From assembly GCA_048213135.1 (NCBI GenBank), contig PS015470.1:19182-78619 (forward strand): DNA of 59,438 nt, in the 5' to 3' direction. The stretch comes from Reclinomonas americana ATCC 50394 (lineage: Eukaryota). This document shows, one piece after another, positions 2,128-49,717 of this stretch. The notes beneath the pieces are model-generated. The model ran no database searches, was not told where the DNA came from, and saw only the letters and a list, made by a program, of their open reading frames with translations. Numbering within the stretch: position 1 is the first letter of the stretch; each line of letters starts with the position of its first letter. A program made the translations under genes and the position numbers.

Positions 2128-2798
2128 TCACGACGCACCGCCACTCCGCGTGGCATACAACCGCGTGTACATGCGTGCTGTCGAGTTGAATGCGCGCATA
2201 TCACCGGCACGAATCATATTGCCGGCATCGCAGTTGAGCGGCGACGAGGCCTCGGGCTCCGACAGCAGCGCCACCACCGCACGACACACCGACTGCAGAC
2301 TCCACATGGGACTCCACGCGCTCTTCAGCTGCACCGCGATGAGGAGAAGCGAAAAAAGCGAGACAACACAAATGCCCGCCACTCACCACATCAAGACAGA
2401 TCTCGCCCGTCTTTTCACACACACACACACGTATGGGCATTGTGTAAGCAGCAGCAGCAGCAGCAGCACACACAGAGAATGACTGCGCGCGCAACTCGGA
2501 AGAGCACGTTCGGATGAAAAATGCGCGTGACAAACGACACTGTGGGCGCCTGAATGGGGTACTCGGCGGGCACACGAATGTCCAACACAAAGCGGCCGCC
2601 TTCGTAGGGCGAGTCGGCGGGACCCGTGATCTCTGCGCGCCAATGATCCAACGAGGTCTCGCTCACAGGCCGCAAAAAGATCTCTCCACTCGATGAGGAG
2701 GATGAGGAGGATGAGGAGGAGGAGGTGCCGGCACCGCGCTTCTGTTCCTTTTCAAGTTCGCGCCATTCGCGTTGAAGGCGGCGGAGGGCGGCGCTCAT
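2128..2798 (-). CDS. PEX4: Ubiquitin-conjugating enzyme E2, peroxin-4 type (3 exons)
   Basis: IFHPNVLFR|TGEICLDV|LKSAWSPMWSLQSVCRAVVALLSEPEASSPLNCDAGNMIRAGDMRAFNSTARMYT. Catalytic Cys present. The C-terminus matches the plant/protist PEX4 pattern (WTLQSVCRA...SPLNCDxGN+LRxGDxRxF). Confidence 0.85.
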
Positions 2799-3021: not shown

Positions 3022-6000
3022 ATGGCGTCGTCGGCTGCTGACCAGCGCGCGACGCGCAAGGTCATGGAGAAGAGCGAGTATGTTCGCGGACCGTGGTCGG
3101 TCGAAGAGGTGCGTCCCTCTCTGCTGTCTCCTTGTGTGTGTGTGTGTGCGAAATGGCGGCTCTCGCTGTCGAAGCACGGGCACTTTTTTTTGTTGTGGCG
3201 GAAAGGAACCGGTACAACACGCACTCTCCCGATTTGTGCCCACACACGCTCTCCTCTGTGCACACACACACGCATGCTCTCTCCGCTGTCTGTCTGTATG
3301 CGTGTACGTGCGCGGGTTCGGGTTGTTGTTGTTGTTGCTGTTGGCGCGCGATGCTCTCGTGCTGAACGCCACGCCCCCCTCTCTCTCAACGCACGCACAC
3401 TCTGTCTGTCTCTCTCTGCGCCTCTGTCTCTCCATCTCCATCTCTCTCTGTCTGTGCATCACTTGTCGGTTTGACGGCTGATTTGTGTGTGCGTGCACAG
3501 GATCAAATGCTGCGCGACTTGGTGGAGAAAATGGGACCGAAGCGATGGTCGCGCATCGCACAGACGATGCCGGGGCGCATTGGAAAACAGTGTCGAGAGA
3601 GGTTTGTTTGATTTTTCTTTTTCTGCTCGTACATACATGGGCATGATTGTGTTGGGTGTGCAATGTCACCCGTTGCGATCTGTGTCATTTCTCGTTCGCT
3701 CTCTCTCTTTCTCTCTCCCTCCCTCCGAGTGTCGGAGGAAAGGGGTGTTTGTGATGCCAGCATCGCAGTGGGCGAGAATTAGTCCCTCGACCTCTGTTTC
3801 GCTCGAGACAGGCGTTTGCTCACACACACACACGTTCGCACCCGCAGATGGTACAATCACTTGTGCCCTGGTGTGCGAAAGACCGAGTGGACAGACGAGG
3901 AGGATGCTCGGATTCTGGATGCACACCAGCGACTTGGAAATGGTGCGTTGCAGTCGAATCGTCGGATTTGTGTGCCACACGTGCCAGAATGTGAATCGCT
4001 CATGGGTGCTTGCAGCGTGGTCGCAAATCGCACGAGCGCTGCCCGGACGCACAGCCAATGCTGTGAAGAATCGCTGGCACTCCACCCTGCGGAAACGTAT
4101 CAATGGTGGAGTCGATGGGCCGCCGAGCCCCACCATGTATGGATCGGCGCCGCACTCGATGGCGCCCGACATGCTGCTGATGAGCGCCAATGCCGTCCCC
4201 ATGGATCTCACACTCGGCGCAAATCGCAAGCGGCGGTGCGAGTACACGCTGCCGTCTAGCCCCAGTAATCTCATGAGGAGTGTCGCCAAGTCGTTCCAAC
4301 AGCGCAAGAATCGCAAGCGCGGTGCGTCTCTCCAGGACTTGCCTGGCAATCATGTGTATTCTCTTCTTGGGACTGACGTTGAGCTGTAGGCGGTATGGAA
4401 GACGACGACGACGAAGACGACGACGACGACGATGATGACGAGACTGACTCATCGTACCCGATGACCACGTCCATCTCCACGGGGCCTTCCACACCTGCTC
4501 CACCGCCGATGTTTGACGACGCGGGAGAGACTGGTACGTGTGCATGTGCTGACTACTCACTGCTCATTTTCGTCACTCATTGTGCTGTGCAGCGAGGAAG
4601 CGACCACGAACCAATGCCCACCAGCCGAATTTGGGAGAGGAGTTTTCACGCAGTGCGCCTGGTTTCGATTTTGCCGAGTTCCAGCACACCATGGCCAAGA
4701 ACCACGCTGCTGCAATGCAACAGTGGGGTGGAATGATGCCGCCCGGTCAGGTCAGTCGCCTCACCTCGGTTGTCCTTCTCTCGCGCACAATCCGACTCAC
4801 CACGTATCTCCTCGCAGCCTTCGTACGCCCCAATTCCTCTCATGTATGGCGGCCCAGTGCCTGCCATGCCCTACGGCGCCGTGCCCATGGGCGTCGCTGG
4901 TGGTCCACCACTGCCACCACCGCCACCACCACCGCCAGTCGCAAGCATGGGATTGCCGCCACCACCGCCTCCGCCCCCACCAGGGTCGCTCATGTCGGCG
5001 CCGATGATTCCACCCGCTGGCATGCAAGCTTCGCTACCGCCGCCGCCACCACCACCACCAACACAACAACACATGGCGAGCATGCCGACGCAGGGTGTGC
5101 CCATGATTCCCGCCGCAGGTTCACAGCCACCAGCTGCCAGCATCGCCGCGACAGCAGCGTCAACAGCAGCAGCAGCAGTAGCATCAAAACCTGGCCACCT
5201 GTTTGGCGCACCTGTGCCCAATCCGTTCAAGTCTGGCGAGCCCATGTTGCGTTTTTTCCCTTGCGGCTGCTGTGACTTGTCCACTTCCCTCACTTCGTTA
5301 TCCTCCTCCCTTTCGTGCAGTCAACTGGCGGCTTCGCGTGTATTTGGCTCGTTCCGATCACTGCGCAACTCGCTGTTCCTGCCACCGACTGCTACAGAGA
5401 GCAATCAAAAGGGCAAGACGGGTGATGATGCCCGCGGCGAACTGCCGCTGCCAGAGGACGCGGACCGTGTCAAGTGCGACAATGGCCGCAATGTCTCCAT
5501 CTACGAGTACTGGAGGTACCGAGACTGCACACCGGCACTGGATCAAGTTGCGCAACTCTCTCGTGTGAACTGCAGCAAAATGCGGGTGATGCTCACACGC
5601 ACGCGCACACACAGCTTGGTCTCGACATGAGGTTCGTCGAGTCCAACATCACTCGGTCGCTGGAGGAGGCGGCGGTGGAGGAGGAGGAAGAGGAGAGCAG
5701 CGGGTCGGCGCAGGCACCAGATGAGGCAGCCACAATAATCTCCAAGAGGCAACGTCCGTCGCTGACCGTGCAACTCGACGGCATCAAGACAGAACCGCAG
5801 CATGACAATGTCGGCAGCGTTGCTGAGCCGTCGGAGCGCCGTGTGGATGAGGATGTGATTGGAGACTCGGAGGAGCCGGTGAGTGCCGATCACGCCGTCG
5901 CTCTTTATTTTGTGGGCGTCTTTCTCACTGCTTGTTGGGCGCGGCGCAGAAATTCCAGTACGACTTCCGTCGCACATCGATTCATGGCACGTCGTTGCCG

Positions 6001-8522: not shown

Positions 8523-10702
8523 ATGAGTTCACGAAGCTGGCGTGGCATCACGAGCATCGTGGTGGTGTGTCTGGCGCTGTGTGCGCTGGCTGTGGTGGCG
8601 GAAGACAATGGGCTGGCACGACTGCCGTACATGGTGAGCTGCAACGATGTGTGTGTGTGTGCACATTGATGCACTATGCTGATGATGCGTGCACACAGGG
8701 CTGGAACAGCTGGTGTGTGTGTGTGTGCGAGAGAGAGTGAGTGAGTTAGCGCGCGTGTGCACTGAGTGTGTACGCGCGTGTGTAGGTCCACAGATGACAT
8801 TGCGGGNNNNNNNNNNNNNNNNNNNNACTGTTGGATCTGTGCTTTGAGTCGGAGGTGCACGGCATTGCAGGTGTGGGTGACTGGTGTGATCATTCTCCGC
8901 ACCTCCGAAACGCTGCTCACTGTGTGTGGCGCAGATGCCATGGCCAAGTACCTGAAGCCGCTGGGCTACAACTATGTCATTCTCGACGACTGCTGGTTTG
9001 TGATGCGCCGTGATGAACGCGCATCTCTCTTTCTCAGACGTGTGTGGCATGGCATGCATATGCACAGGGCGGCGCATGAACGAGACACGCAGGGACGGCT
9101 GCAGGGCGACGCGAAGCGATTCCCCAGTGGCATGAAGGCCCTCGTGGGTGCGTGTGTGTGTGTGTGCTTGTAAGGCAACTTGGTGATTGCGGTGATCATA
9201 TTGCGGACCGCAGACTACGTGCACTCCAAGGGTCTCCGCATTGGCTTTTACACGTGCGCCGGCAACATCACGTGCAAGTACAATCGCCCCGGAAGCTACG
9301 GACACTACGAGCTGGATGCGCAGAGTTGCGAAAGACTGGCTGCCGTCACGCTGTGCTCTCTCTGTTCGTAACGAGGTTTGTTGTTTTTGCGTGCACAGCG
9401 TTCGCCTCGTGGGGAGCCGATCTGGTGAAGCTCGACAACTGCCACATCCCGCACGACGTGCCCGACCGCAAGGTGCTGTACACGCAGTTCTCGCAGGCGC
9501 TCAATGCCACCGGCCGTCCCATGCTCTTTGCGCTGTGCGAGTGGGGTCAAGGAAATCCGGTGTGTACCGCATGGCCACACATATTCGATCGTGTCGCCAC
9601 ACTGACTTAACAGTCTGTTCTTTCTTCATTGTTTCCGTGCAGTGGGAGTGGGCTGGAGACATTGCCAACTCGTTGCGTTGTCAGCTCGAGATCATGACTG
9701 AATGCAATGTTTTTGACTTGTGATCATCGCAGGTGGCGCATTCACACCGACCTCCTGCCGTGGTGGTGGGGTTCGCAGGGCACTCTGCAGGTGATTGAGT
9801 CGGCTGCCAACAGATCGGCGTATGCTCGTCCGGGGTTCGTGGAATGCGATGTCCTCTCTGCATAGTTTTCTGTGAGTTCCTCACCGCCTCTGCATGTTTC
9901 CCACGAATCAGCGCGTGGAACTATCTGGGTGAGTTTCTTGTGCGCCACACTCCTCCGCCATAGTCGCCACTTACAGTTCGTTTCGCTGCAGATATTATGC
10001 AAATCCTCACCTTTGAGACTGGCTACATTGACTCCAAGACCATGGTATGCGAGTGTGATGCGTACGTTTGATGCGCTTGATGTGTGACCGACTCCTCCAC
10101 TCTCCGCAGTTCAGCATGTGGGCCCTGGTCAACTCGCCGCTGGTCACTGGTTGTGACATTCGCGATCTCGGTGCGCCTCGGGTCGTGCACACACTGGCTC
10201 GTCATCGCACTCACCTTTTTTGTCGTGCGCAGGCATCAACAAGCCGAAGGCCGACATTCTCATGAACACCGACGTGATTGCCATCAACCAGGACCCGCTG
10301 GCCAAGGCCGGCGACCGCATCGCTCAGTACGCCGACGGCGGGCAGGTGTGGGCCAAGCCGATTGTCGGCGGCCACGCGGTCGTCCTCTTCAACCCGCACG
10401 ATGTCGAGACGCGCACCATCAAGGTTACGTGGGACATGCTCGGCTACAAGGCCGGCACCAAGCTGTCGCTTTACGATGTGTGGACGCACAAGGTGATGCT
10501 CCGCGCAGCGGTGCATTGTCTGTAAGAACACTGCTCACTCGTCCGTGCGCGCGCTGTGCAGTCTCTCGGTGATTTCGTCGACGGCTACGATCACCTCGTG
10601 TGGATGCACGGTGAGGGCGACTCGACCACTGCTCACTGCAATCGCTCCTCTTACCCTCTCTCGCCCACAGATGTGATGATGTTCACCGCCAAGCAGGTGT
10701 GA
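8523..10702 (+). CDS. Secreted alpha-galactosidase, glycoside hydrolase family 27, multi-exon
   Basis: Signal peptide, then DNGLARLPYM|GWNSW, GYNYVILDDCW, RFPSGMKAL, DYVHSKGL, FASWGADLVKLDNC (nucleophile Asp), WRIHTD (acid/base Asp) and VIAINQDPL. Confidence 0.93.
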
Positions 10703-10796: not shown

Positions 10797-11157
10797 TCAC
10801 GATCCAGACGACAGCACCTCGTTCTCTGCACGCGTCAGCGCGCCCTGCTCATCCAGATACCTGGCGTTCTCCAGCCACTTGCACTGCCGACCGATGCGAA
10901 TCAGCTGATCACGCACACTGTCACACACACTCTCACTCGCACTCACCCACACGCTACACACTTCCGTCAACTCGTCCTGCATCTGCGCCACGCTCTCACA
11001 GTTGCGTCGCAACCGCATCACCTCGCTCTCCAGTGTGCCCACCGATTGTGCGAGCTCTGTGTGCGACAACGTTTTCAACAAACTCATCGCAACACCCACA
11101 TGCGCACACACACACGCAACGACGAATGACTTCTTCTGCGGCCTCTGCTGTCGCCAT
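10797..11157 (-). CDS. Small coiled-coil protein (~57-80 aa); possible DASH/Dam1-complex small subunit
   Basis: Spliced product MATAEAAEEVIRQ|LAQSVGTLESEVMRLRRNCESVAQMQDELTE|LIRI... The family resemblance is by eye only. Confidence 0.45.
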
Positions 11158-14322: not shown

Positions 14323-14461
14323 ATTGTGAAGAAAGAAGTTGGGGGTTGGGGAGGGAAAGGCTTTCCCCCCGCGGTTGACCCAGCAAAACAATAAGTGGGC
14401 CAATCCAGCGGGGAGGCAAGTACAGTCGCAGCCACACAGCCAGTAGCAGCTAGGAAGCAGC

Positions 14462-20717: not shown

Positions 20718-22324
20718 CTACTGCTGCTTCCTGCGTGACGGCACCCGTCTGAACGAGTCGACGAGCCAGCGCACTAGGCACACGAGCACCAGCACGTGCG
20801 CAGCGATGGTGATCATGGCCAGTGCGCGGAACGCAGCGACGCGTTCCCCTGATTCCACCACTGCGTGAGGGGGAAGAACGGAAGTGAATGAACCTCATTG
20901 CACATCCTTCACATGCACACATGCACACGCACCCGTGTACCACGTTCGCCACAGCAGCAGCGCGATCGCACTCACGAATGCGCAGCCGTACTCCAGTGCC
21001 TTGGCAATCGATTGGTTCCACCAGCGGAAATTGTCGGCTGTGCACACCACAGCGTGGGTCAGCGGCGGCGCAAGGAGAGACGCACGTAACCACTACGCAA
21101 CGGCATTGCTCGGCGCTGTAGCTCGCTCCAATGTCTTCCTCGAACAGGAGCAGCGGCGGACTCGATACGAGACGCACACCGACGAGAAGGAGCACCACGT
21201 ACGCCGCACTCCACCACCGCCAGTCGACAAAGACATCAAAGGCCACACGAACAACTGTGTGTTCCCACATGGCACTCGGCTGCACTCCACCTCCATGAGT
21301 ACCTCATCAACACGGCAACACACACGTGCACACCCACACCCGATGCACAAACCATGTCGCCAATGGCGATCAACGCCGCATAGTACCACACGGCAATGGG
21401 CGCCAACCAACGGTAGCACAGCAGCAGCAGGCGACGCAGCCCGAAAGACCAGTCGCTCAGTTCGATCGGCTGGCGAACCAGACGCTGCGCATGCACAGAG
21501 AGAGAGAGAGGCGATGAGTGCAAGACGCACCCACGTCAAACACACACCACAAGACCGACGCACCACCCACACGGGCAGCGACAGTGCAGCCAGCAGACTT
21601 GCACGCGCAAAGTACACAAACAGAGTCGGCACTGCACTCAGTAGCCGCGAGAAAGCGTCCATGATCCCACCAGAGGCCATCGCCACGAGTCGGGCCTCGG
21701 TCGACGCAGGCGATGCCGACGACGGCTTTGACGGCATGGCCTGCACGTCAAACTCGTCGGGATCAAGAGCTCCACTCGACAGCGATGCAGCTCCTGCTTC
21801 CGCGCACCACTCAGTGCACAACCCTACGATGCACAAACGATCTTACGTTCGTACACACCACCAGCAGGAGAAGGCGATGATGATGATGATGATCGCATGA
21901 CATGGAATCCATCCTGCTGCGCCAGCGGCACACCCAGCGAATCCAACACCCACGCCGATGGACTCATCCCACGCGCCGACTGGCCCTCCACGCGCCCATA
22001 AAAGACCACCACAATCAGCGTGAGGAAGAGGAAGCGTCGAATATACATCGCGCCCTGGAACAGCAGCACTTGCTTCCACTTGAGACGTGCCCACCAGTTG
22101 TGCGCACGTTGCGGCTATCACATATATATATGTGTGTGAGAGAGAAGTACAGAGCGCGAGTGAGAGAGACAAGTCGCAACTGGCTTTTTTGGCGCCTTCT
22201 CGTCGGCCACAGTGACGATGTCCCAGAATTCTTCATCAGTCAGTGGCAGCAGAGGCGGGTTGCTGGATGGATGCCCCACAATGCCACTGGCCACACCCAG
22301 TGCAGTCGCCACCACGTCGGCCAT
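20718..22324 (-). CDS. Uncharacterised membrane protein, multi-exon
   Basis: Starts MADVVATALG. Contains hydrophobic segments (WWSAAYVVLLLVGV; ALAMITIAAHVLVLVCLVRWLV). TAG at 20718-20720. Exon structure approximate. Confidence 0.5.
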
Positions 22325-24251: not shown

Positions 24252-27200
24252 ATGAGCGACACAATCAAGATCTATGGACGTGTGCGACCGGTGAAACGGC
24301 CGAGTGAGAGCTATCACATTGAGCACGATGAGTTGGCCGGCAAGGACTTTGTCGGTGAGCAACACCCCCTTGCTACTCACTCACTCTCTCTCTCTCTCTC
24401 TCTATTACACTCACTCCCTTGTGCTCTCTCACACACGCAGAGTTCTCGATCGCACGCGACGCACAAGCCGGCTACGTCAACAACTCACGAGAGAACTACA
24501 AGTTTGAGTTCAACCGCGTGTTCGACCGCGACACCCTCCAAGACGAGGTGTTTGATGTGGTGGCGCGCCCGAGTGTGGTCAGTGCACTGGATGGGTACAA
24601 CTCGACGATTTTCGCATACGGACAGACCGGCAGCGGTAAGACGTACACCATGACGGGCAGCACCAAGCGCTACGAGGATCGTGGCATCATTCCGCGAGTG
24701 ATCTCCATGATCTTTGGTGAGCTGCAGAAGGTTTGTATGCGCGAGTCCGTGTGTCTCTCTTGCGGAAGGGTGGCCACAATGAGACTGAGGAGTGCGGTGC
24801 GCGCAGCGATCGGACTATGTCTACACGATTCACATCTCGTATCTGGAGATCTACAACGAGTGCGGCTACGATCTGTTGCATGGCGATGATATCACGGAGA
24901 TGGACGATTTGCCGTTGCGTCTATCGTGTGATCAGCTGTGCTACGGTTGACGCTCAATCATCGCGACCATCATCGCAGCAAGGTGCAACCGCGTGAAGAT
25001 GCCGACGGCAACATGCATCTGCACAACCTGAGTGCTCGACTCGCCACTCGCGAGGAGGACGCGCTCAATCTGCTGTTCCTCGGCGATCTCAATCGTGCCG
25101 TGAGGTGTGCGATCGCACGCTTGTGTACCCTCCCTCCGGCGATTCTCCACGCTCACATGTCGTGTTTGTACGCTCACAGCGAGACACCGATGAACGAAGC
25201 CTCGTCGCGTTCGCACTGCATCTTTACGGTGATGATCGAGGCGCGTGCGGAGGGTTCGGCCATGGTGCGTCGCTCCAAGTTGCACCTGGTCGATCTGGCC
25301 GGTTCCGAGCGCGTGTACAAGACTGGTGTCAACGGAACCACGCTGCGCGAGGCCAAGGCCATCAACCTGTCGCTCCACTTTCTCCAGCAAGTGATTGTGG
25401 CACTGACAGAAGGGTGCGCGATGGAGGAGAGGAGAAGTCAAGACTCGCCGTCGTCGTTGATCATCTCACTCCTCCATTGTTTCTCCTGCCACAGCCAGTC
25501 ACACATTCCGTACCGCAACAGTCTCATGACGAGTTTGCTGCGTGACAGTCTCGGCGGCAACTGCCGCACGGCCATGATTGCCACGATGAACCCATCGGAC
25601 GAGCACTTTAACGTGAGCAGAAGCGCGATCTGTGGTGCTGTCGCTTGGTGTTCATGTCGACTGCCGTTTACAGGAGAGCATCTCGACATGTCAGTTCGCC
25701 GCACGTGTGGCGTGCATTCGACAGGCAGCTCTCGTCAACGAGGAGCTTGATCCCACTGTGGTCATCCGGCGTCTCAAGCGCGAGATTCAGGAACTGAAAG
25801 AGGAGCTCGTGTTTTATCGAGGCGAAGGCTCCTCCGAGCCGCTAACAGAGTCGGAGATGCGCAGGTGTGTCAGCGTGCTGTCTATTGAGGCGACGTAGTT
25901 GTGTCTCACTGGCGAATCGCAGAGCACGAGAGACAGTGGAATCGTACGTAACAGACCCGTCACCAGACTCCTCCCTCCCCATGGGTAATCCGGAGAAGAT
26001 CAAGGCCTTTTATGGCATCATGAAGGTCTGGTGGTGCATGCGACTGTGAGTGAGCGAGTATGGACACAAGAGAGCCCATCCATTTGTGCACAGGAATTGA
26101 TTCTGGAGGCCCGAAAGAATGCGTCGTCAGCGCCGCGTGCGGCCCCAGTCGCCGCGGCCAAGATGGTCGACTCGACTCCGCCACCGTCAGCGGCTGTTTC
26201 GTGCACCGCACGTGTGCTGTGCGAATTCAAGTGTCATGTCCCCCTCACTGTTGTTCTTGTGCGCCGCAGCCCAAGGCAGCAGCGTCTGCGTCAGCGCCGC
26301 CGGCAGCCGTCTCAGCCGCAGCTGAGGAACAGATCAATGGCCTCATGCTGCAGATTGAGGAGCGCGACTATGAAATCAGTGAGTGCTGGCGCTTGCGCTT
26401 GCGGAGGTGGCTGTGCAGCAAGATACTGACTTGCTTGACCCCGCAGACATGTTGCTGTCGTTCCTGAAGAAGCAGAAAAAATCCGGGTCCATGGTGTCGG
26501 CTGGCACACAAACGGGCCCCGAGTCGTCGTCGAGTGCCGGCGAAGTGCTGCGTGAGCGATTCTCGGACCCCACTGGCGTGCCCAACATTACCGACCGCGA
26601 CACACTGCGACAGGCGGTGCTGGCAGGTGCACCACCGCGATCACATCATGCGCGTGCCGCTCCACCGGCGGCCGTGCAGCAAATGGCCGACACAGGTTGG
26701 TGTGCATTGCACGCATCCGAGTCTGTAAGAGTGCTCACGCCAGTCGCTGCTGTGCAGACTTGCTGAGCGATCGCAACAAGGCATTCGAGGTGTTCCGCAA
26801 GAGCTACAGGAAGAACGAGGTGTTTGAGGAGCAAAAGGCCTCACTCAAGAACAAGTACGACGAGGCCAAGGTGACACACGATGCGGTGAACCTTGCGCGC
26901 AAGAACATGGGTGTGTGTGTGTCTTTTATATGCAAGGAGTTGGTTTTGCTGTGACACTCACTGATGGACACACAGATGCATTGAAGGCCCGCATCGAAGC
27001 GCTGCGTGCCGAAAAGGCATTACAGGGCCTGCTGGACAAGTCGGGATCTGTGAGCGAGACTCGCGATCCAGAAGAACTGCAGTGCTTGCGACAGATTTCA
27101 GAGGAGAAGAGAATGTTGCGTGCACGTCTTTCGATGTCTGTCAGTCTCGAGTTGAGTGGATGCTCACGGCGTCGTGCGTGCATGCAGATACAAGGAGAAC

Positions 27201-28053: not shown

Positions 28054-29207
28054 ATGGTGTGTTGTGCATGCTCTCTCTCTCTCTCTCTCTCTCGCAATCT
28101 CTGTCTCTCTCTCTGCTTCCCTTCCTCACACATGCGAGCACACAGAAATTCCGGATCTGTGGCAACCTCGACGCACCCGACTGGCTGCTGGCCGAGCTGG
28201 CCTACCTCGCCAAGATTGTTGCGCACACACAAGCACACCAAGAAGCGCACAATGAGAGAGAGAGAGAGATGTGTGTGACACGCACTCGCATTCAATCATT
28301 CACTCACTCTTCCCCTCTCACACTCACACAGACATCAGTGCGTTTCAAGCTGGTGGCCACTCAAGTCGTCTCACAACTCGTCGGCAGTGGCATTGATGTT
28401 GCGTCCATACCTCACACACACACACACTCTCTCCCCATTCTCCTCTCTCATGCATGCATTCACACTGTCCAGCATGAGAAAGTGGCCAAGTTGACAGCCG
28501 AGGCGATTCCCGACTCGTCGGATCTGCGCGGAGCTCTCGCCGCACTCACATTCCTCGTGCGCAACGCTGCGCGCTACTCCATCGACGAGGACACACTGAT
28601 CAATGAGCTGCAGCAGCTCGGTCTTCCCAAGGGTGTGTGTGTGTGTGTTTGTTTGCCTCTCGCTTGTGATGTGCTGCTCACGAGTGCGTAGAGCATGCGG
28701 ATGCGCTCAAGCGGCCGTACCGAGACAACCTGGATGCGTTGCGCGCCAAGTTCAGCGAGCAGAGCATCAGATGTTGCGTCTTTTCCGAGTCTTTTTTCCT
28801 CCTTGCTTGTCTGCTGATCAATGCCTTTCTCTCTGCGTGCAGTGCCTACTGTGTCGTCGCTGGAGTGGAAGGTCAACTTTGTGGTGTCGAGCAGCAAGAG
28901 CGGGGTGCGTCCGTGTGTGCTTCCTTGTGTGTCGAACGGGCGGCTGCTGACTGTCAGATACAGAGCGCACATGAACCGTACGTGGAGCTGCTGATGGGTG
29001 TGCGCTCGGAGGAGGCACAGACGCGCAACAAGCGACCGGAGATGGTGCACTTTTCGGCCGCACGCGACAAGTTCGACGTGCTGCTCACTGGTGAGACACT
29101 CACGACAAAATGAGCTTGCTGGAAAAGAACGACTCACCCGATTGATTGCTGCAGAACTGAGCGATGCGTATCGTTTGCTGGAGTCTCTGGAGCGCGAGCT
29201 GCGATAA
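28054..29207 (+). CDS. COMMD4: COMM domain-containing protein 4
   Basis: M|KFRICGNLDAPDWLLAELAYLAKI|TSVRFKL...ELQQLGLPK|EHADAL...LEWKVNFVVSS...KFDVLLT|ELSDA matches the COMMD4 pattern. Confidence 0.93.
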
Positions 29208-29351: not shown

Positions 29352-32300
29352 ATGGTTGTCTCTCGTCTCGGTGTGGCATTCACTCTCCGCCTCCTATGTG
29401 TGTGAGATGCATATTCTCTCTCGTGATTCACACACAATCGCACACACAGTCCTCGCCTTTCTGCGCAAGTACCTCGTCATCTTCATCCGCGGCTTCCACC
29501 GCCGCCAGTTCAAGTTCTCGCTTCTCAAAGGCCAAAGCACCCTGCGCAATGTTGGTGTGTGAGAGAGAGAGAGAGAGAGTGGAGAGTGCATTCTGTATTC
29601 TCGACATGGAGTGCTGATAATGATGTTCGCAGAACTCAACTGTGTGGTGCTCACTGACCTGCTTCGGCGGGCGGGCATTGGTCAGCTGGATGTTCGCCGT
29701 GCCTTTGTCAGCCAGTGCCTCATCGATGTTGAGTGTGTTCTGCATGCAGCAGTTGGTCATTCTCTTTCTCACTCGCATCGCACTCTCTCCTCCTGTGCAT
29801 GATCATGGCAGATCTCCATCACCAAGTTGAAGAAGAAGCCAGTGGAGATTCACCTGGAGCGAGTGGTGGTGGAGATTGAGGAGCGCGACGACTGGGAACC
29901 GTATCAGCATATTCTCGAAACACTGCTCAAACAGTATGTCGTTGAATCAGCTGCTCCCGCCCTCGTCCTCCTGCTGCTGTTTCCTCACTGGAGTATGCTT
30001 TCTGCTGCCATTGTTGGTGTTGTGAACACAAGAACGAGAGAGCCGGAGGAGGAGCAAAAGGAGTACACGCTGTCGGATCGACTGGCCGATGGCGCCACGA
30101 TCACGGTGCAGCATCTGACGGTGTTACTCCGCTTCGGCTCGGCCAAGAGTGTGCTGCGGCCGCTGCCGTTGCGCATCGATGTGCGCGGTGTGCGTGTCAC
30201 CACTGTGAACTCGTTGTGGGAGGTGCGTGTGCGGATGTACAGCTCGGGCGAAGTGTGTGAAGAGATGCTCATGATTCTCGGCGGTAGGCGGCTCCTCTCA
30301 GCGACTGCATTCCGGCGGCGGCCGGCAAGAATTCCTTGTACATGTTCCGGTCGGTGGAGATCGAGAGTCTGTCGGTGGCGCTGGTTCAAGGCAATGGCGA
30401 ACAGCTGTCACTGATTCGCGACATGCCACTCAGCATCCGAGTGCGTTCTGTCGTCGAGCACGACCGAGACTCGCGCAGTTGTTGATTTTCTTCGTGCAGT
30501 TGGCGGTCAAGAAGCGACTGAATCCGCTCATGGAGTTGTCGACGCACACCGAGATCCACATTCCGGCGTTGTCGATTGTGGCAGACAGCCAGTCGTTGGT
30601 CGAATGGGTCAGCGCGCTGCAGCATGCCGACAAGTGCATGGACCGATTGCCGCCCACTGGCCTGAGGGAACGCTTTGCCTCCATGTTGCGTGACGTCACA
30701 CACACTGTTTGCGAATGGCGATGCGGGCACCTTAACGTTGGACTTGTACGCCAGTGGAGAAATGGACCCGGATCTGCAGGAGGTCCTGGGCGTGCTGCGA
30801 TCGAGTGACCAGATGGTGGTGCGTACGCACAATCTTCTTAAGGAGGATGATGGTCGATTTCATGGCGGTGCGTGACACAGGCCGACACCGAAGCGGACTT
30901 GGCCACCATCGACGAGGACACGTCGTCCTCTGAGGAGTACACGTACTCGGCGGCTGCGCCCGGCGGATCCACACCCAGCACAATACAGGTGTGCAATCGA
31001 TTATCAAAGAAGGCAAGCTCTCGTTGTCTGACTTGTCGCTCGTGTCATTGCAGTCGCCGCTGCTGGAGCTCAACTTTCGCCCCCTCCAAGTCATGAATGT
31101 TCTCATCGACAAACTCGATGTGTGCATCATGCCCATCAGTGGTTCCCCGAGTCGTATTCGAGTCAGCGCCGCACACATTCGGGTACTGTCGCCGTGCTAC
31201 GTCCCCAGTCAAAAGCATTGGTAAGCTCACCCGCTGCCGCCCACCTGTGCAGATTACCAAGTTTCGCTTTCCTTCGCGACCACCAGAGGAGACCACCACG
31301 CAGATCCAGTTGCCGGTACTGGGCATCTACGATGAGGCCGACGAGTCGAGCCCGTCGCTGTGTATTCTAGCCTGTCTGCCACCCTCGCGTCAGCGTTTCG
31401 TTGCTCGTCGCACGTCCCTTTGAGAGGAGTGTGTGCTGACGACTCCATGGTGCAGGTGCTGCTGCGCGCGATGCACCACCCGCGCAGCCGTTTCCGGTAC
31501 TCGAACACCGACCGCTCCCTTCGTGGATCGCCGCACGACCGTTCACCGGTGCGTTCTCTCTTGTCGGCACGCTTTCTTCCATTATCACGAAGCCGATGGT
31601 GCGACGTTGCGTGCAGATCTGCATGACCAGGGCCTGGTGATTCGCATGGTCAAATCGTACCCACCGCCGGCCAAACCCGCCATCCCAAAACACATGGAAC
31701 TCCGTGTGTACCCGTGCGAGGTTGGGAGTGGCGATCGTAAGTATTATCGCCGAAGCTGACTCACGCCGATGTGTGTGCCTGCAGATTACTCTATCCCTTC
31801 CGTTCCTCTCCAGAGTCATGGTGCTCGTCAAGCAGATTGCGGAGATGCAGGAGCGCTCGCCGTTGCCCGAGTACGAGTTTGAGCGTGATTTCAATCGCAA
31901 TCAGTCCATGCACATTGAGTTGGACAGCATGAGCTTCCGATTGCCTGCCGACGGTGTGTACGATGGCTCGCCAGTGGTGCAACTTGTCGCGGAGAAATGT
32001 TGCGTGCCCACACACGCTCCCGACTCCGTCGCACCACTCTTATCGTGCGGTCCGTCGTTGCAGTGTCTGTGCGCATGCCGAGTGCAGAGTTTGACGTGTT
32101 GCCCATCCACGACCCCATCTTTGGCTTGGATGTGGCGGAAATGCGCGACCTTCGGCACACGATGCAAGCGATTGGTGCCAATCTGTGGAGCATGTTTGAC
32201 ACGAGATATCAGGTGTGTGAACGTGAGAGAGAATGGACAGATGTGAACGCTGTGTGACGCTCCCGCCTACTGCAGGTGACTTGTAACAACCTGTATGTGC

Positions 32301-35198
32301 GGATGAAGGACGAGCATGCGCAAATGTCGCATTTGGTGGAGCCATTCAGGTTGCGACTGCATGCCGCCCTTGTTTCAGATCCGTTGGTACGTGTGGTGCG
32401 CGCTTGCAGCTTCTTTCCTCACGAGTCGTGCAGTCTCATGCGACGCGCCCAGATTCCGCTGTTGTACCGAACCATTGCATCGTTTGAAGCCACACGTATC
32501 GTGGCGGGAGTATCCGAGTGGCAGTTGCGCCCACTTCCGTCTCTCTCTCTCACTCTGCGGCGGCAGAATGCTCACTGCTTGTGTGTGTGGGGGGGAGCGC
32601 AGGTTGGGTCACTTGAAGCGCATATCACAAGCATTCTCCACCGATCTCAAGCCCAAGGATGCGAGTGGTGTTGGTGTTGAGGTCCCTGCTGCACCTGTTG
32701 ATGGTGTGTCTTGGAGAGTCGTCCCTCACTGCGATGCATGCATGCTCATTCACTCGGCGTCGCTCGACAGAGGCAGCCAAAGCGCTTGAGACACTGCAGG
32801 AGGGAGCCATGGCTCTCTACACATTCTTGCTGATTGCGTTTGTGGAAAACATTGTTGTGCGACTGCCGAAACCAATGGTGCTCGGCGATGTGTTGTTGGG
32901 TGGCGCTACGGCGTGCCCGGTGCAACTGATTGTTGAGCGGTGAGTGGTGGCATTCGTCAGCTGCGAGGCAGGCGACTAATGCAGCATTTGCCTGATGTGG
33001 GCAGGAGGACGCCACATACAATCCCCCGCGTTGTGTTCCGCACCACCATCGATGTCGGTGACGGCCAGGTGGCGCAGCAGCGTGACATTGTCTTGTCGGT
33101 GAGAGAACTGTGTGCAATGCTGTCCCTCGATTGCGTGAGTGTGCATCTGTTGACTTGAATCAGATTTTGGAGCCGTCGTCGGGAAGCCTGCAGCAGCCGA
33201 CGCCACCCGACGACACGGTCGACACGGTGACGCTCATGCAGCATTTCTCGAGTGACTTGCGCTCTGCGCTGTTTCGCACCCGCGTCATCCTGCATCGTTT
33301 GATGCACACACTGAATGGCGAACACTCGCGGGTGAGATCGGTGGAGAGTCGCTCGCAATGTTCCCCTCTCACAATAGCACGGCAGCGGCGAGAACAATCG
33401 TCAGAACACCTAATCAACCCTGAAGCCGCCTGCATGGCTGCCGCAATCGATGACGACCTGCGGCAGTTGCAACGTTGCGTTTGATGACAGTGCGATCACA
33501 CAATGGCTTCTGCTCATCACACCTTGCCCACACTCGCGCAGAGGACCCGCAGCAACTGGCTCGCCGGATGATGGCCACACCGCTGTACTGGCGACAAGTC
33601 GTGATCATGGATGGAGTCTTCGAGAAAGAGGGTGAGCGTTGCTGCTTGTGGCCTGCCTGCGGTATCCGCTCTTTTTCACTTTACCACNNNNNNNNNNNNN
33701 NNNNNNNNNNNNNNNNNNNNNNNNNNNNNNNNNNNNNNNNNNNNNNNNNNNNNNNNNNNNNNNNNNNNNNNNNNNNNNNNNNNNNNNNNNNNNNNNNNNN
33801 NNNNNNNNNNNNNNNNNNNNNNNNNNNNNNNNNNNNNNNNNNNNNNNNNNNNNNNNNNNNNNNNNNNNNNNNNNNNNNNNNNNNNNNNNNNNNNNNNNNN
33901 NNNNNNNNNNNNNNNNNNNNNNNNNNNNNNNNNNNNNNNNNNNNNNNNNNNNNNNNNNNNNNNNNNNNNNNNNNNNNNNNNNNNNNNNNNNNNNNNNNNN
34001 NNNNNNNNNNNNNNNNNNNNNNNNNNNNNNNNNNNNNNNNNNNNNNNNNNNNNNNNNNNNNNNNNNNNNNNNNNNNNNNNNNNNNNNNNNNNNNTGCACT
34101 GTTGCCGCACCTCGGACTCGCTCGTGATGTGACCACCATGTCGGTATGTGTTCGTTCATGCCGTGTGCTTCGCGATCGATGCAGGCGGCTGAGATTGCAT
34201 GCGACAGGTGCACGAGGTTCGCGACATTCTCGCCGCCCTGCAGCACATGGACGACGGCATCAACTCCATCTACATGAATGCAATTGGCATTGACCTGGCC
34301 GCTTGTGCGTACGTTTTCGTAGTTTGTCGTCATCTCACCTGCTCATCCCATGATGGCTGCACGCGCCGACAGCATGTGCCTGGCTGCGCGATCCCTCTCT
34401 CGATCGTCTCCTCTGTACGGTGCTGGCCGGCGTCCCCGTGCGTGCCCGCCGTGTGGGCGATCGACGAGCTCACCGTGGCGGTGGCGGCGGTCACAGCCAC
34501 CATCAGTCCATGCCAGCAAAGCGGGTGAGTGTCGGTTGTCATACTCGCTTTGCCGTACTCTGCGCTTCTCAACACAATGGCCCGACAGTTTGCCGACGTC
34601 ACCACGACGGCGGCGGCCACTCCCACCGATACCGATTTTGCGCTGTCGTCCATGTCTGCCAGCGATGTGCTGGCTCATCACGACAGCTCTCCAGAGATGC
34701 GAGTGCGCACTGGGCCCGGACGGTACGCCTCGTTCTCGTCGCGCCTCGCCGCAACAGTTGCGTGATTCGAAACGCGGATGCTGCTCGCCTCTCTGGTCAC
34801 TTGCTGAGCTTGTTGTCTTGCGGGAACAGCCGGTCGACGAGGTCGCACCCGAGGAGGAATCAGATGCCACGCAGCGGAGCACCACTGTGCGCTCGCTCTT
34901 CTCCGACACGACCGCCACCCCGCTTACCGCAGTGTCACGGTACACGGCCGAAGATGTGGAGTTGGCAGCCTTTCATGCGGCACAAGAGCGTTTCGTCTCC
35001 GACATGCATTGCAGCCCGGCGACAACCACGACAGTGTCCACTAATTTCCCTCGAACAGAGAGACGCAATCTCGGCTCCGTGGCCACTCAGCTGATGGAAC
35101 AACTGAAACAGCGTGACAAGACCATCTTGGATCTGAGCGACGAAAACAGACGGCTGCGCGAGGAAGTGGCACATTTGCGCGCCCGCCTCCACTCATAG
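29352..35198 (+). CDS. Bridge-like lipid transfer protein (Chorein_N), BLTP3/UHRF1BP1(L)-like, spans a gap
   Basis: FLRKYLVIFIRGF...FSLLKGQSTLRNV|ELN...ITKLKKKPVEIHLERVVVEIEE, YTLSDRLADGATITV and TVNSLWE. C-terminal coiled coil LSDENRRLREEVAHLRARL. That the two sides of the gap form one gene is inferred. Confidence 0.75.
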
Positions 35199-37704: not shown

Positions 37705-38560
37705 CGACTTGAACAGAGGATGCAGCCAGTCCTCGCCGAGGCCATACGGAATACCCGTGTGAACGACATGCGAGCGCACATTGTCGCGACGCGGGCGCTT
37801 GTGCACCAGCTTCTCAATCTGCGAGCATGGAGAGAGAAAGAGAGAGCTCAGTGGGACAGGCCGCGTAAACAAACACAGCACCCGAGACACACACGCAACA
37901 TCGACAATGTGCTGGTAGGCGGGATTGGTGCGGCGCTTCACTGCCAGATCCTCCGTGAACGTCTCGTCAGGGTTATCAGGATCACGAGGCACACGATCCC
38001 ACGACATGACACTGCTGCGCACAATCAGCGTCTTGTGATCCATGAACTCGGCGTTGCGCAAGACTGTGTCCCGCATGAGAAAAACTGATTTGAGATCGCC
38101 ACAAACACACACTTTATCCAACGCAACAGTTGACGCATTTCAGCGTCTCCTCTGGCCTCTCCAGCACATCATAGATGATAATGTTGGCCTCCAGCCACGC
38201 CGCCCACAGCGCCTCGTCACTGCTTCCATCCTACACACACACACACAGAACAAACCAGATGAACATGGTGCTCAACTCACTCTCTCCTCAGTCACAAGTC
38301 AACGCAACAATGAAACGCGTCACATGCGACAGCACACTGGGACTCCCCGAGCCCGCAGGCGCAGCATCAGAGGACGACGAACCAGCCGCAGCCGCAACAG
38401 CCGCAGCAGCCGCCTCCATCACAGCCGCAGTGGGCGGTGCCGTGGCCAGCGACTCGACATTGACCGTGCCAAACACCTCAATGCCCTGGTCCGCCAGCAG
38501 CTTGCTCAAGTGCCGACCCAGAAACGTGTCACACGGCGACAAAAACGCTTTCTTCACCAT
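37705..38560 (-). CDS. AK7: Adenylate kinase 7, N-terminal (SDR-like) part
   Basis: MVKKAFLSPCDTFLGRHL...IIYDVL...KTLIVRSSVMSW...IEKLV...GIPYGLGEDWLHPLFKS, ending in a phase-0 donor. This segment directly precedes 'AW' in AK7. Confidence 0.82.
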
Positions 38561-38930: not shown

Positions 38931-41900
38931 ATGAAGCGGAGGCGACGATCGCGTTCTGCGACCAACGACGGCGATGGCGAGGATGACGATGGCGATGCGC
39001 CTCCTCCACCTCCGCCTCCTCCAGCAATGATGCAGGTGGATGATGCCAATGACGCGGATGAGGAGGATGAGGACGATGACAATGACGACTCCAAGGCGGC
39101 AGCGGCGATGACGACGACGACGACAACAACGACGCGGTTGAGAGCGTTGACACAGGAGCTGTTGAGCAGTGGCAAGGCGGTGACAATGGCGGCGCAGAGT
39201 GCGCTGTCGGTGGTGGGGGGCGCGGCAAAGGGTGGTGGTGAGGAGGATCCAGTCGAGGCGTTTGCGTACAGGATGGCGCGCAATAAGCATGGCTTTGCGC
39301 GGGTGGCGGAGGCGAGCGCGGCGCGCATTGTAAAGTGCGTTTGTGGTGTTTGTGTGTGTAGATGTGCATCTGCACGTCCGACACCCCACTCTCTCTTCTC
39401 TTCCTCGCACACGCACACACATAGTATCGAGTGTGCTCTCCTTCTCGCACCTCTTCTCTTTGTGTGCATGTTCGATTGAGTCCTCGCTCTCTCTCTCTCA
39501 CACACACTCACTCTCTCTCCCACACCCCCACCCGCACAGGATACTGAGCAAGCTGCATGGGACCTACGTGGGCGGGCGTGCACCGGCCACGCAGGCCGAG
39601 TGGACCGACAATATGGAGCCCGTGGTTGACTTGCTCGACAATTTGTACGAGATTGTAGTTGCGTGGTCGAACATCACAGCCACCACCAGCTGTCGCAGTC
39701 CACTCACGTTGTGTGGCGTCGTGCAGGACACGGCGTTGGATGAGGCGCAAGGGAAGCGCAAGACCGGCAAGGGTGAGAAAGCGACGTCGGCTGCCTCGTC
39801 GACGACCACCTCGCAGAAGAAGAAGCTGGGCATGGACGACCTCCGTCGCCCGGTTCTGCTGCGGCCGCAGCTGCGATGGGGCGACGTTGACAACGCCATG
39901 ACGCTGTTCGCACCGAAACTGAAGACCAAGCCGAATGCGTTGTTGTCGCTGGAGGAGACGTACGCACAGGGTGGAGTGACCGACACTCCCGACGGTCCCG
40001 CACCCGCTGCGCTGGCCAGTGTGGAGGAGTATGCGCGATCGCTTGGTGCTGTGTCGTCAGCATCGTCCGCGTCGGCGTCTCCAATGGTGGCGGGCGGGCG
40101 GAGACAGTGCGTCTCGTTGTTGCTTCTTCTATTTTTTGGGTTTTCGCACGCGAGTTGCTGAGTCGTCTTGTTGCTGTGCAGATTCCCGCACCCGTACGGA
40201 CCAGAGCTGAAAGCGCTCGACTTCACCGACGAGAGGCATCTGACTGCCACCCGTGAGCAACTGTTCCGCAAGGTCGAGGAGACCGAGTGCCAGTGGGTGT
40301 CCACGCGAGATGAGCTCGAAACCATGGCCGCAATATTGGATGGGGAGAGCGAGATCGCCATTGACTTGGAGGTTTGTAGTGTCCATGAAGTCTCTCTCGT
40401 GGTCGCATGTCGAATGTGCTCATCGTCTCGGTCTCCACAGCACCACAATTTCCGCTCCTTCACCGGTTTCCTGTGCCTCATGCAAGTCTCCACGCGGACG
40501 CAAGACTTTTTGGTGGACACTCTCGAGCTGCGCGAGGAGTTGCACATTCTCAACTCGTCGTTCACAAACCCCAACATCGTCAAGGTGTGTAGCGCTTCTG
40601 TATTGAAGGCATGGCGGCAGTCATCATTGTGCTCACATGCCAACGTGTGGATCAGGTGCTGCACGGTGCACAGTCCGACGTGATCTGGCTGCAGCGCGAT
40701 CTGGGCCTGTACCTTGTCAACATGTTTGACACGGGCCAGGCAGCTCGTATTCTCGGTGAGTCCCTCGCACGAGGAGTGCGTGCGCAGAGCTCACTGTTGG
40801 CTGACGCACTTGTGGCATGCAGAGTTTCCGAGTTTCGGCCTCGCCTTCCTGCTGAGTCACTACTGCGGTGTCGTGGCCAACAAGAAGTATCAGAAGGCCG
40901 ACTGGAGAATACGGTGCGATTTTTTTGTGTGTGAGACTGTGCATTGACCCACATCACATCACTCTTATTCTTTGCGTTGAAACAATGACAGACCGCTGCC
41001 GCAAGAAATGATTCGCTACGCCCGCGAGGACACGCACTATCTGCTGTATGTGTACGACCGGTTGCGTGCGTCGCTGGCGCAACAGGGCCAGCAGCGCGGT
41101 ATGGGCGCAGAGCTGTTGCGCCAAGTGTGGATCAAGTCGCGAGACATTTGCCTGCAAACATTCCAGCCCGACATCTTCACCGAGGACTCGTACATGAACC
41201 TGCTCGAGAAGCTCGGTGGCCGTCGACTGCGGCAGGAGCAGATCAACGTCTTCCGAGCACTGTTCAAGTGGCGCGACTTTGTCGCTCGCTTGGAGGACGA
41301 GTCAACGAGCTACGTGCTGCCGAATCTGTTGCTCATGCGGATAGCCGAGGAGGTACCGCATGACGTGGACCGATTGTGCGCCGTGGCCAAGCCCATTCCT
41401 CCGCTGCTGCAACGCTACAAACATGTAGTGATGCAAATCATACAACAGGCACTGCAAGAGAACGTTGCGTGGCGACGTGCTCGTGTGTGCGTGTGTCGTC
41501 CGTGATGTCGTGCTGACCGAGGATGTACGCAGTTTGACTTTGCGGATCAGTTCGAGGCCATTCGCTCGATGAGCCATGGTACAGTTCGATTTGCATTCAA
41601 TTTCTTTCTCGTTGTGTCTGACTGTTTGTTTCTGTAGGCGACAAGGCCAGTGGTTCGGGTGCAGGATCGTCTGCTGGTGCCACGGCGACGACGACAACCA
41701 CCACCACCACAACAACAATAGCGACAGCAGCCGCCAGTGCACCATTGTCGGCATCGGCTGGATCTGCAGCAGCAGTGACGGGTGGAGCTCGTAATGGATC
41801 ACGAGCGCGCACTGCCGCGGCATCCATGGCGGTGGACGAGCCATCGTCTCGCTCTGGTTCGTGCTTCTGTAATGTGTTTCCCACTTCTGTACCGCTACCA

Positions 41901-48369: not shown

Positions 48370-49717
48370 ATGGGAGGTGGTGCAAGCAACGGTGCAGGTG
48401 GCAAAGACGGTGGTGGCAGTCTGGCGTCAGGCGGCGTGCCGATCACCAGAACGCTCTCCATTCGTCCCGACGAAGACAAGCCTGTTGTGATAAAGCGTTT
48501 CGTCTTCTCTCACACACACGCACACAGACACANNNNNNNNNNNNNNNNNNNNNNNNNNNNNNNNNNNNNNNNNNNNNNNNNNNNNNNNNNNNNNNNNNNN
48601 NNNNNNNNNNNNNNNNNNNNNNNNNNNNNNNNNNNNNCTACATGTGTACACTCTCCACGCTGAGCCTCATCATCTTGTGTGGCGATCTGTGTGAGCAGTG
48701 ACCGATGAGCAACGATTCAAGATCGTCACGCGTTTCCGACAACTCAGGTGGGTCGCTCTCCCCCTCCTCCTCCTCCTCCTCCTTCTTCCTTCCTTCCCTC
48801 CTCTCTCTCTCTCTCTCTCTGATCAGTCTGCTGATGTGTGCGCGCATCAACAGCGATGGTCAACCGACATTGAGTCGCGATCGCTTATGTGCGGCGCTGG
48901 GCGGCGATCACGTGTTTGCCGGTCGTATCTTCGACGTGCTGTTGCGCTTTGGTGAGCAAGTGGCGGCCGCATCAGCTGCGGCCAAGTCGACGGGCAAGGG
49001 TACGCGCACTCTCCTCACGATAAATGATGTGTGTGTCGCTGACCATGTCACCAGGTCGCAAGGCAGCTGCACCTCCTGCACCGCCGCCACTCACGGAGCT
49101 CACAGAGGAGCACATGCTGCAGTGCTTTGCGCACATTCAGGATCCTGCGCGCACTGTGCAGTGTTGCGTTGACTGTCGCTTGCAGGCTTCTGGAGCACTA
49201 CTCATCGCCCGTCGCAGTTGTCATGGCGCTCTTTGACATGGACGGCGATGGGCGGTTGAGCGAAGACGATGCGGTTGCGTCGCTGGCCGACAAGACCGAG
49301 AGATACGGGCCCGAGGCCGTGTGGGAGGGCAGCATGCTGGCCGCCCTGCGACTGTGGATCAGCGGCATGAACGACGACGACGACGACGACGACGTGTCGT
49401 CGCCTGCCAGTGCTGGTGAGTGCGAGTCGAGGCAGCAGTTCTATATGTTTTCCATCGAGCTCACCCGGAGCACAGCCCCGGTCGACGTGGTAACCTTCCG
49501 CGACATCATGTCGCGGGCCAAGGAGAGCGAAAACGAGCGTCAACGACGCGCCTCGGCTGTCGCGTACGGCAGGTGCGTTGCTTGTTCCTCCTCGGACTGC
49601 TTTCCCTGTATTGACAACTGGAGATGCAGTGCGGAGCCTCCAGCTGCAGCAGCGAGTCGAAGACTAGCTCCACCCGAATCGCAGCGCCGATCGTCGAGAA
49701 GTCCAAGTCCACGATGA
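48370..49717 (+). CDS. Putatively myristoylated EF-hand protein (calcineurin-B/NCS-like), spans a gap
   Basis: MGGGAS start, RFRQL...FAGRIFDV and the EF-hand loop LFDMDGDGRLSEDD. Confidence 0.55.

Follow-up and report, generated by a model that had tools for sequence, protein, structure and literature searches.

A GTTGCG donor class that lacks an exon-final G among predicted introns of Reclinomonas americana

Shifted and bulged registers of the U1 small nuclear RNA (snRNA) on 5' splice sites have been experimentally established in human cells (PMC4856993; reviewed in PMC9311317). The +1 shifted register was described by Roca and Krainer (2009), as summarised by Tan et al. (2016; PMC4856993), and the register with a bulge at +2/+3 reportedly by Roca et al. 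(2012) and also by Tan et al.; the validated noncanonical registers together account for ~1.5% of human 5' splice sites (PMC4856993). 5' splice sites have also been divided into left- and right-handed classes, which are regulated by LUC7 proteins (PMC11842720). Here we describe introns that begin with GTTGCG in a stretch of Reclinomonas americana ATCC 50394 DNA (NCBI GenBank assembly GCA_048213135.1, contig PS015470.1, positions 19,182 to 78,619 of the forward strand), which is 59,438 bases long and is referred to as the window. Within the limits of predicted introns, they form a donor class without an exon-final G, in solid contrast with the ordinary donors. U12-type introns also have a rigid donor, /RTATCCTT, and lack an exon-side consensus; their conserved branch site is TCCTTAAC-like and lies near the acceptor.

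In the human shifted register, as described, an extra U follows the GU, the consensus is displaced by one base, the +1 G lies opposite C9 of U1, the exon has no G at -1, and cleavage stays at the GU. GTTGCG donors have the same layout, and their +1 G would face C9 in the same way. They differ in abundance, with noncanonical registers being a small minority of human sites whereas one heptamer accounts for 27 of the 112 predicted introns here, and in pairing, with human shifted sites pairing well with canonical U1 whereas GUUGCGU does not. A likely exclusion of G at -1 and a bias to A/T there mark the GTTGCG donors, and neither is known to belong to the human shifted register as described. Donors of the bulge +2/+3 type likewise start with GUU and have the downstream consensus moved by one base. 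By that account they keep exon-side pairing, to which a -1 G is favourable, whereas it is absent from 27 of the 27 GTTGCG donors. The LUC7-regulated classes resemble the situation here in that one depends on exon-side and the other on intron-side consensus. They are, however, the ends of a one-register continuum, whereas in the GTTGCG class a U is inserted, the hexamer hardly varies, and -1 G is lacking categorically instead of by degrees. GTTGCG introns differ from the U12 type in donor motif; their branch motif, CAG acceptor and length are ordinary, and they are much too frequent for that type.

Shifted or bulged pairing of U1 is regarded as a rarity whose interest lies mainly in the interpretation of human splice mutations. 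One shifted-type heptamer at about every fourth intron, with an all-or-none rule for the exon end, would, if true, be a natural experiment on how U1, U6 and U5 set the cleavage site, on whether co-evolution of the U1 5' end with the donor consensus is possible, and on how strongly splice signals limit codon choice at exon ends. A gene finder that relies on one donor matrix will mis-annotate a genome of this kind; our own skipped a 66-nt exon of the COMMD4-type gene described below until the GTTGCG class was modelled. In narrow searches of the literature on the motif with introns or splicing, and on jakobid spliceosomal introns, we met no account of a GTTGCG donor class.

Frequency of GTTGCG donors and the base before them

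Introns were called by a purpose-written two-strand Viterbi gene finder that scores coding sequence with a 3-periodic model, introns by their composition and acceptors with a matrix. The sole demand on an intron is that it start with GT and end with AG, non-GT donors being outside the scope of the finder. The exon side of the donor is never scored, hence the base at -1 is unbiased. A first run without a donor model gave 119 introns, and a second run with a first-order donor model covering only intron positions +3 to +8 gave 112. The introns are predictions except where the splice junction is fixed by homology, i.e. colinear with homologous proteins or Pfam profiles, which applies to 9 GTTGCG and 15 ordinary junctions.

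GTTGCG is the commonest donor hexamer, opening 17 of the 119 introns of the first run and 27 of the 112 (~24%) of the second, and it makes up only ~1% of all GT hexamers in the window (90/7930). The leading hexamers among the 112 introns are GTTGCG (27), GTGCGT (11), GTGTGT (10), GTTGGT (8), GTTTGT (6), GTGAGT (5), and GTATGT (4). The base before the 27 GTTGCG donors is T in 12, A in 9, C in 6 and G in none, whereas 52 of the 85 other donors follow G (Fisher p=1.8e-9). The difference persists when three introns of a pseudogene copy are left out (50/82 of the others after G, p=2e-9), when GTGCGT donors alone are compared (9/11, p=3e-7), and in the run without a donor model (0/17 GTTGCG donors against 45/102 others, p=2e-4). 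At the homology-fixed junctions, G precedes 0 of 9 GTTGCG donors and 14 of 15 others (p=7.6e-6). An earlier note on this DNA had found no GTTGCG donor after G and had stated that most ordinary donors follow G; tabulating the -1 base by donor class bears out both statements, in the predicted as well as the homology-fixed introns. The four sites that it quoted are present as written, namely att^GTTGCG at 28218, gat^GTTGCG at 28398, agat^GTTGCG at 28773, and caa^GTTGCG at 5547 (^ marks the splice junction).

The asymmetry is also seen without any gene model. Compared with an order-3 Markov expectation, AGTTGCG is found 25 times (12.4 expected), CGTTGCG 25 times (17.3) and TGTTGCG 32 times (22.6), a 1.4-2x excess, whereas GGTTGCG, found 8 times with 10.7 expected, has no excess. 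The heptamer surplus of ~30 is wholly in the non-G heptamers and agrees with the donor number. Among donors with a TGCG core, G^GTGCGT occurs 9 times, H^GTGCGT twice, H^GTTGCG 27 times and G^GTTGCG not at all (H being A, C or T).

Nine introns with GTTGCG donors run from GT to AG, and taking them out leaves a reading frame that is colinear with homologues or profiles of COMMD4, KIF6/9, alpha-galactosidase, ubiquitin-conjugating enzyme (UBC), and AK7:

28218..28223, plus strand: GTTGCG donor after att, COMMD4-type gene, intron 28218-28331; ..LAKI^TSV.., no indel against four homologues
28398..28403, plus strand: GTTGCG donor after gat, COMMD4-type gene, intron 28398-28472; ..SGID^HEK.., a 25-residue tblastn gap equals the 75-nt intron
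28773..28778, plus strand: GTTGCG donor after gat, phase 1, COMMD4-type gene, intron 28773-28842; ..QSIR(L)PTV.. without indel
24914..24919, plus strand: GTTGCG donor after gcc, motor of the KIF6/9-type kinesin; ..DDLP^KVQ.., no indel against five homologues
27115..27120, plus strand: GTTGCG donor after aat, C-terminal (KIF9) domain of the kinesin; ..EEKRI^YKENF.., no indel
9325..9330, plus strand: GTTGCG donor after aga, alpha-galactosidase; Pfam Melibiase_2 positions 85-119 before and 121-167 after, the split codon being 120
2490..2495, minus strand: GTTGCG donor after cga, UBC; intron 2495..2411 (85 nt)
37894..37899, minus strand: GTTGCG donor after gat, N-terminal block of the AK7-like gene; ..HIVD^IEKL.., no indel against eight homologues
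38122..38127, minus strand: GTTGCG donor after act, N-terminal block of the AK7-like gene; spacing of both aligned flanks unchanged

The gene at 28.05-29.1 kb is of the COMMD4 type (Pfam COMM_HN), and its spliced product has no indel at the three GTTGCG junctions when aligned with four homologues. Its ordinary donors are as follows:

28057..28062, plus strand: atg^GTGTGT, homology-fixed, M^KFR..
28633..28638, plus strand: aagg^GTGTGT, intron 28633-28691; placed 2 nt downstream by the gene finder
28905..28910, plus strand: ggg^GTGCGT, homology-fixed

At 28633, only the aagg^GTGTGT phase yields ..LPKEH.., as in all four homologues. In the UBC gene, a 24-nt mini-exon at 2410..2387 of the minus strand encodes the active-site Cys stretch and fills the gap in the UQ_con profile from 75 to 87. 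The 85-nt GTTGCG intron lies on one side of this mini-exon and a 58-nt GTGAGT intron on the other. An intron starting one base later (G^TT...) was tried and rejected, because the extra base in the mRNA would break the homology-fixed frames. The gene finder made several errors: it missed the 24-nt UBC exon, placed one GT-repeat donor 2 nt off, and took a degenerate duplicate of the kinesin for a gene. Donors opening into (GT)n runs (28633-28691, 8653, 8715, 26911) have several frame-compatible cut points, hence the apparent -1 G frequency of ordinary donors is lowered in the ab initio calls.

The ordinary donors have the consensus G^GT(G/T)(T/C)GT with GTGCGT as the commonest hexamer, and most of their information resides in the exon-final G, +5 G and +6 T. 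In the second form, H^GTTGCG(T/C), the heptamer G^GTGCGT has T for its second G. Position +7 of GTTGCG donors is T in 18 and C in 6 of the 27, and position +6 of ordinary donors is T in 54 of the 85; at +4, the latter have T/C in 57 and A in 13. Comparison of GTTGCGT with G^GTGCGT shows the intron-side consensus displaced by one base after the GU, with U at +3, which, like the missing exon -1 G, is a trait of the shifted register. Donors that have T at +3 and keep G and T at +5 and +6 suit the canonical register alone, and they are preceded by G in 6 of 6 cases for GTTTGT, 2 of 2 for GTTCGT, and 4 of 8 for GTTGGT.

The two intron classes differ at the donor only. The median intron length is 70 nt for GTTGCG introns and 71 nt for the others, C occupies acceptor position -3 in 24 of 27 and 69 of 85, respectively, and a branch-like CTSAY motif is found in 15 of 27 and 58 of 85. 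GTTGCG introns are mixed with ordinary ones within genes, occurring in 19 of the 28 intron-bearing gene models and on both strands. A blastn-short comparison among the 27 GTTGCG introns gave only two matches, of 12-16 nt and low complexity, and no common sequence. Four ordinary donors on the plus strand follow G and have GTTGC from +5, at 16032 (GTATGTTGC), 18485 (GTTTGTTGCG), 18786 (GTACGTTGC), and 49573 (GTGCGTTGC). Hence, a GTTGCG-like motif follows 4 nt into each of these introns; the sites could be alternative donors in tandem, or the motifs could be there by chance.

G before GTTGCG inside and outside donors

The chance level of finding no G before the 27 donors varies with the null chosen. 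The expectation from codon-position composition, with weights for intron phase, is 35% G, which gives P(0/27)=7e-6. In its sequence context G is scarcer: it precedes 17% of all GTT (233/1377 window-wide; 48/286 inside predicted exons), giving p=0.0065 for 0/27, and 8 of the 63 non-donor GTTGCG sites, giving p=0.10 in comparison with the donors. Among the GTTGCG sites left unspliced in sense exons, 4 of 12 follow G, compared with 0 of 27 donors (p=0.006). All 8 G^GTTGCG sites fall outside predicted donors, with four in sense exons, one in a sense intron, two antisense to exons, and one between gene models. A true exclusion of G before GTTGCG donors is thus likely, though not proven in 59 kb. 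Three of the eight sites merit description:

32350..32355, plus strand: cag^GTTGCG, the sole G-preceded in-frame alternative donor candidate, 33 nt upstream of the predicted donor 32383
49274..49279, plus strand: gcg^GTTGCG, read as coding in a predicted sense exon, just past an EF-hand loop match
41061..41066, plus strand: ccg^GTTGCG, unspliced, inside the Pfam DNA_pol_A_exo1 match of its exon

The gene model prefers 32383 over 32350 by 4.0 nats, and no homology covers 32350.

Outside the gene models there are 26 GTTGCG sites, only one of which follows G. Four non-G sites (12217, 12664, 12988, 13746) lie in the T-skewed plus-strand region 11644-14460, which has no gene call and no Pfam match. 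One long frame of this region (11.6-14.4 kb) was translated and looks non-coding. It is possible that unmodelled genes with more GTTGCG donors exist outside the current gene models.

U1 pairing and alternative readings

We read the GTTGCG donors as a shifted-register class that has grown major and sharply defined in this lineage, probably together with an adapted reader, and we offer this reading as a tentative one. One 5' splice-site signal would occur in the two forms given above. U1 snRNA would dock on G-(G/U)-U-G-C-G-U in one frame, with the first G of the heptamer always taking the place of the exon -1 G opposite U1 C9. Cleavage would take place at whichever GU is present, with the cut following the first G of an ordinary donor and preceding that of a GTTGCG donor; the latter case would be the +1 shifted register. 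An intron that brings its own G would leave the exon in need of none, which would explain donors after A, C or T. We infer U1 as the reader, the register in which it binds, and a cause for the exclusion of G beyond its not being needed.

Duplex energies were computed for AUACUUACCUG, the canonical U1 5' end given in PMC4856993, from which the host U1 sequence may differ. The 27 GTTGCG donors have mean energies of +0.96 kcal/mol in the canonical, -0.17 in the shifted and +0.24 in the bulged register, so they are effectively unpaired in each, compared with -4.66 kcal/mol for ordinary donors in the canonical register; a human-type shifted site has -7.8 in the shifted register. On paper, the canonical U1 5' end thus forms no such helix with GTTGCG donors, and the reader RNA or a helper protein is expected to be non-textbook. 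The earlier note had proposed that the first G of the intron acts as the -1 G for U1. The logic of the heptamer, the missing -1 G and the retention of G by +3 T donors in the canonical register speak for this part, whereas the lack of real pairing with canonical U1 in any register, including the two registers whose energies the note had wished to compare, does not support it. The idea of two mutually exclusive modes holds in one direction, as no GTTGCG donor here has -1 G; in the other, 33 of the 85 ordinary predicted donors (1 of the 15 homology-fixed ones) also lack -1 G.

Aside from the absent helix, several observations weigh against the shifted-register reading. A -1 G would add a computed 4-6 kcal/mol of canonical pairing to GTTGCG donors, hence simple U1 energetics predict enrichment of G rather than its exclusion. 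In the shifted helix, position -1 would face U10, which should favour A or wobble G, and this is not the order of bases observed. G is rarer at -1 of GTTGCG donors than at the register-equivalent -2 of ordinary donors (25/85, p=4e-4), and of the 11 codons that immediately precede a phase-0 GTTGCG intron, 9 end in A/T, with 25% expected (p=1.3e-4). Both results contradict the view of the earlier note that the exon end is freed from splicing constraint. The motif is also much sharper than the ordinary donors moved by one base would be, with GTTGCG in 27 donors, GTTGTG in one and GTTGAG in none, compared with 11, 10 and 5 for GTGCGT, GTGTGT and GTGAGT. T at +5 might be avoided in the GTTGCG class since it creates a second GT, which leaves the shortage of A unexplained. 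Furthermore, the sequence-context nulls put the depletion of G no lower than p=0.0065 to 0.10, and 18 of the 27 GTTGCG donors are calls of the gene finder only.

These difficulties give room to other readings. The host may have a changed or second U1 snRNA whose 5' end matches the local consensus (ACGCACC or ACGCAAC for ACUUACC) and so differs from the canonical ACUUACCUG, GTTGCG donors being a fully paired dedicated class; we consider this unlikely. When all 1024 variants of U1 positions 4-8 were scanned against 95 short-intron donors, the canonical sequence ranked 285th, AUACGCACCUG was best overall (averaging -7.0 over GTTGCG donors and -8.4 over the rest), and AUACGCAACUG was best for GTTGCG donors (-11.3). 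The invariant C at +5 (27/27 by definition, though GTTGTG opens a single intron and GTTGAG none) suggests a G partner, and the preference of ordinary donors for T/C over A at +4 agrees with a variant U1. However, the scan is circular because its output is the complement of the consensus, and it is a lead rather than a result, although it gives a sharp prediction for host U1 genes; the window has no U1 gene by Rfam (0 matches). With AUACGCACCUG, moreover, H^GTGCGT (-9.0) outpairs H^GTTGCGT (-6.2), yet is 13x rarer (2 vs 27). The rarity of H^GTGCGT relative to H^GTTGCG suggests that the G at the C9 position matters beyond nearest-neighbour energy. Yeast has U at +4 with canonical U1, hence a donor consensus does not reveal the U1 sequence, and the 5' end of U1 is among the most conserved RNA sequences; both count against a variant U1. 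It is doubtful that the lineage has rebuilt its 5' splice-site recognition altogether, such that the 5' end of U1 or a U1 paralogue is ~ACGCA(A/C)C, in roughly one intron in four the cut falls one base upstream of its usual place relative to the U1 helix, an exon-end G is selected against because it would draw the site into the other register, and the registers form a genome-wide mutually exclusive code, not a rare tolerance.

Alternatively, GTTGCG donors could be an extreme right-handed class in the canonical or a bulged-U register, where intron-side compensation makes the exon G dispensable with no register shift, and a strong intron side is read by U1 with a U bulged at +2/+3, by U6, or by a LUC7-type protein. 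Both animals and plants have documented classes that trade exon-side for intron-side consensus (PMC11842720), the +2/+3 bulge is a validated human register (PMC4856993), and 18 of the 27 donors score best in the bulged register, though all three registers are near 0. Yet this register leaves C9 free, so that a -1 G should help by the same 4-6 kcal/mol and be present at background frequency at least, and the A/T bias at phase-0 exon ends is not predicted; we regard this reading as improbable. Rather improbable, too, is that composition and sampling account in part for the pattern, with -1 G merely unneeded and its full absence due to the rarity of GGTT, a small sample and gene-model errors. The scarcity of G before GTT and before non-donor GTTGCG fits such an effect, the original hypothesis was drawn from four of the 27 donors, the site at 32350 is an in-frame G^GTTGCG alternative, and the gene finder does err, as the missed 24-nt exon and the misplaced GT-repeat donor show. 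The contrast with other donors, however, is independent of the null (p ~1e-9; 7.6e-6 for homology-fixed junctions), unspliced GTTGCG in sense exons does follow G at 4 of 12 sites, the codon-position null is rejected strongly, and false GTTGCG donors would raise the G count, not lower it. A separate intron family, either served by other machinery as U12-type introns are or consisting of mobile 'introners' with a donor of their own, has in its favour that a rigid donor without exon-side consensus resembles that of U12-type introns. It is largely refuted and very unlikely indeed: the donor is not RTATCCTT, the branch-like motif, CAG acceptor and length are as in other introns, introns making up 24% of the total are interspersed with ordinary ones within genes, and no copies alike along their length were found by blastn-short. 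Since only the donor distinguishes GTTGCG introns, they are neither a repeat family nor a minor-spliceosome-like class.

Further GTTGCG donors and neighbouring genes

The other 18 GTTGCG donors were called by the gene finder, as listed below, where both runs means with and without the donor model:

81..86, plus strand: predicted after tct, 148-nt intron; gene finder only
1473..1478, plus strand: predicted after gac; gene finder, also without donor model
5246..5251, plus strand: predicted after cat; both runs
5547..5552, plus strand: predicted after caa; both runs, quoted in the earlier note
11115..11120, minus strand: predicted after gtc; gene finder only, low gene score of 1.8
21096..21101, minus strand: predicted after gcc; both runs
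22175..22180, minus strand: predicted after cca; both runs
30685..30690, plus strand: predicted after cat; gene finder
31999..32004, plus strand: predicted after aat; both runs
32524..32529, plus strand: predicted after gca; gene finder
34757..34762, plus strand: predicted after aca; gene finder, region not alignable to homologues
38393..38398, minus strand: doubtful, after gct, 168-nt intron with G at +7; gene finder only, in an unalignable Ala-rich stretch
41464..41469, plus strand: predicted after aac, RRP6-like exonuclease; gene finder, next exon without Pfam coverage
47498..47503, plus strand: predicted after cgt; both runs
53950..53955, minus strand: predicted after aga, 212-nt intron; both runs
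55493..55498, plus strand: predicted after gtc; gene finder only, low gene score of 0.3
56497..56502, minus strand: predicted after aca, ChrR-cupin gene; both runs
56842..56847, plus strand: predicted after cga; gene finder

The window is draft eukaryotic nuclear DNA, intron-rich, with ~58% GC and ten N gaps, and predicted intron lengths peak at ~55-85 nt. Pfam scans of long open frames recognise at least 15 genes on both strands. These include a TPR/PH protein, a UBC enzyme, a Myb protein, an alpha-galactosidase, a WD40 protein, a KIF6/9-type kinesin, the COMMD4-type protein at the finding described here, an AK7-like adenylate kinase, an RRP6-like exonuclease, an LEA-like protein, a BACK/Kelch protein, a ChrR-cupin protein, and TCP-1 delta. 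The best protein identities are 76% for TCP-1 delta (with a jakobid), 52-55% for the kinesin, and 43% for COMMD4 (read-through query). An Rfam search of the whole window gave 0 matches, hence no snRNA gene, U1 included, was detected inside it, and a 51-nt exon string from the window end gave 0 matches in a metagenome scan.

The long single exon at 45428-46429 of the plus strand encodes a repetitive LEA_4-like protein rich in Ala/Lys/Glu/Thr. A histone H2B-type gene (Pfam Histone) is truncated by the 20-N gap 14721-14740, its C-terminal part occupying 14462-14720 of the minus strand. The region 22440-23100 partly duplicates the 5' part of the kinesin gene (24215-24900) in degenerate form, with 84% identity over the alignment and frame-breaking indels, and is probably a pseudogene. 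The similarity stops just short of the position of the kinesin GTTGCG donor. The AK7-like gene is split over the N gap 37341-37683 into 35539-37156 of the plus strand and the N-terminal block 37684-38886 of the minus strand. On the minus strand, the exon closes with ..LFKS^GTGCGT at 37704, and the protein resumes with AWHQ.. at 35539 of the plus strand, which looks like a mis-oriented contig in the scaffold.

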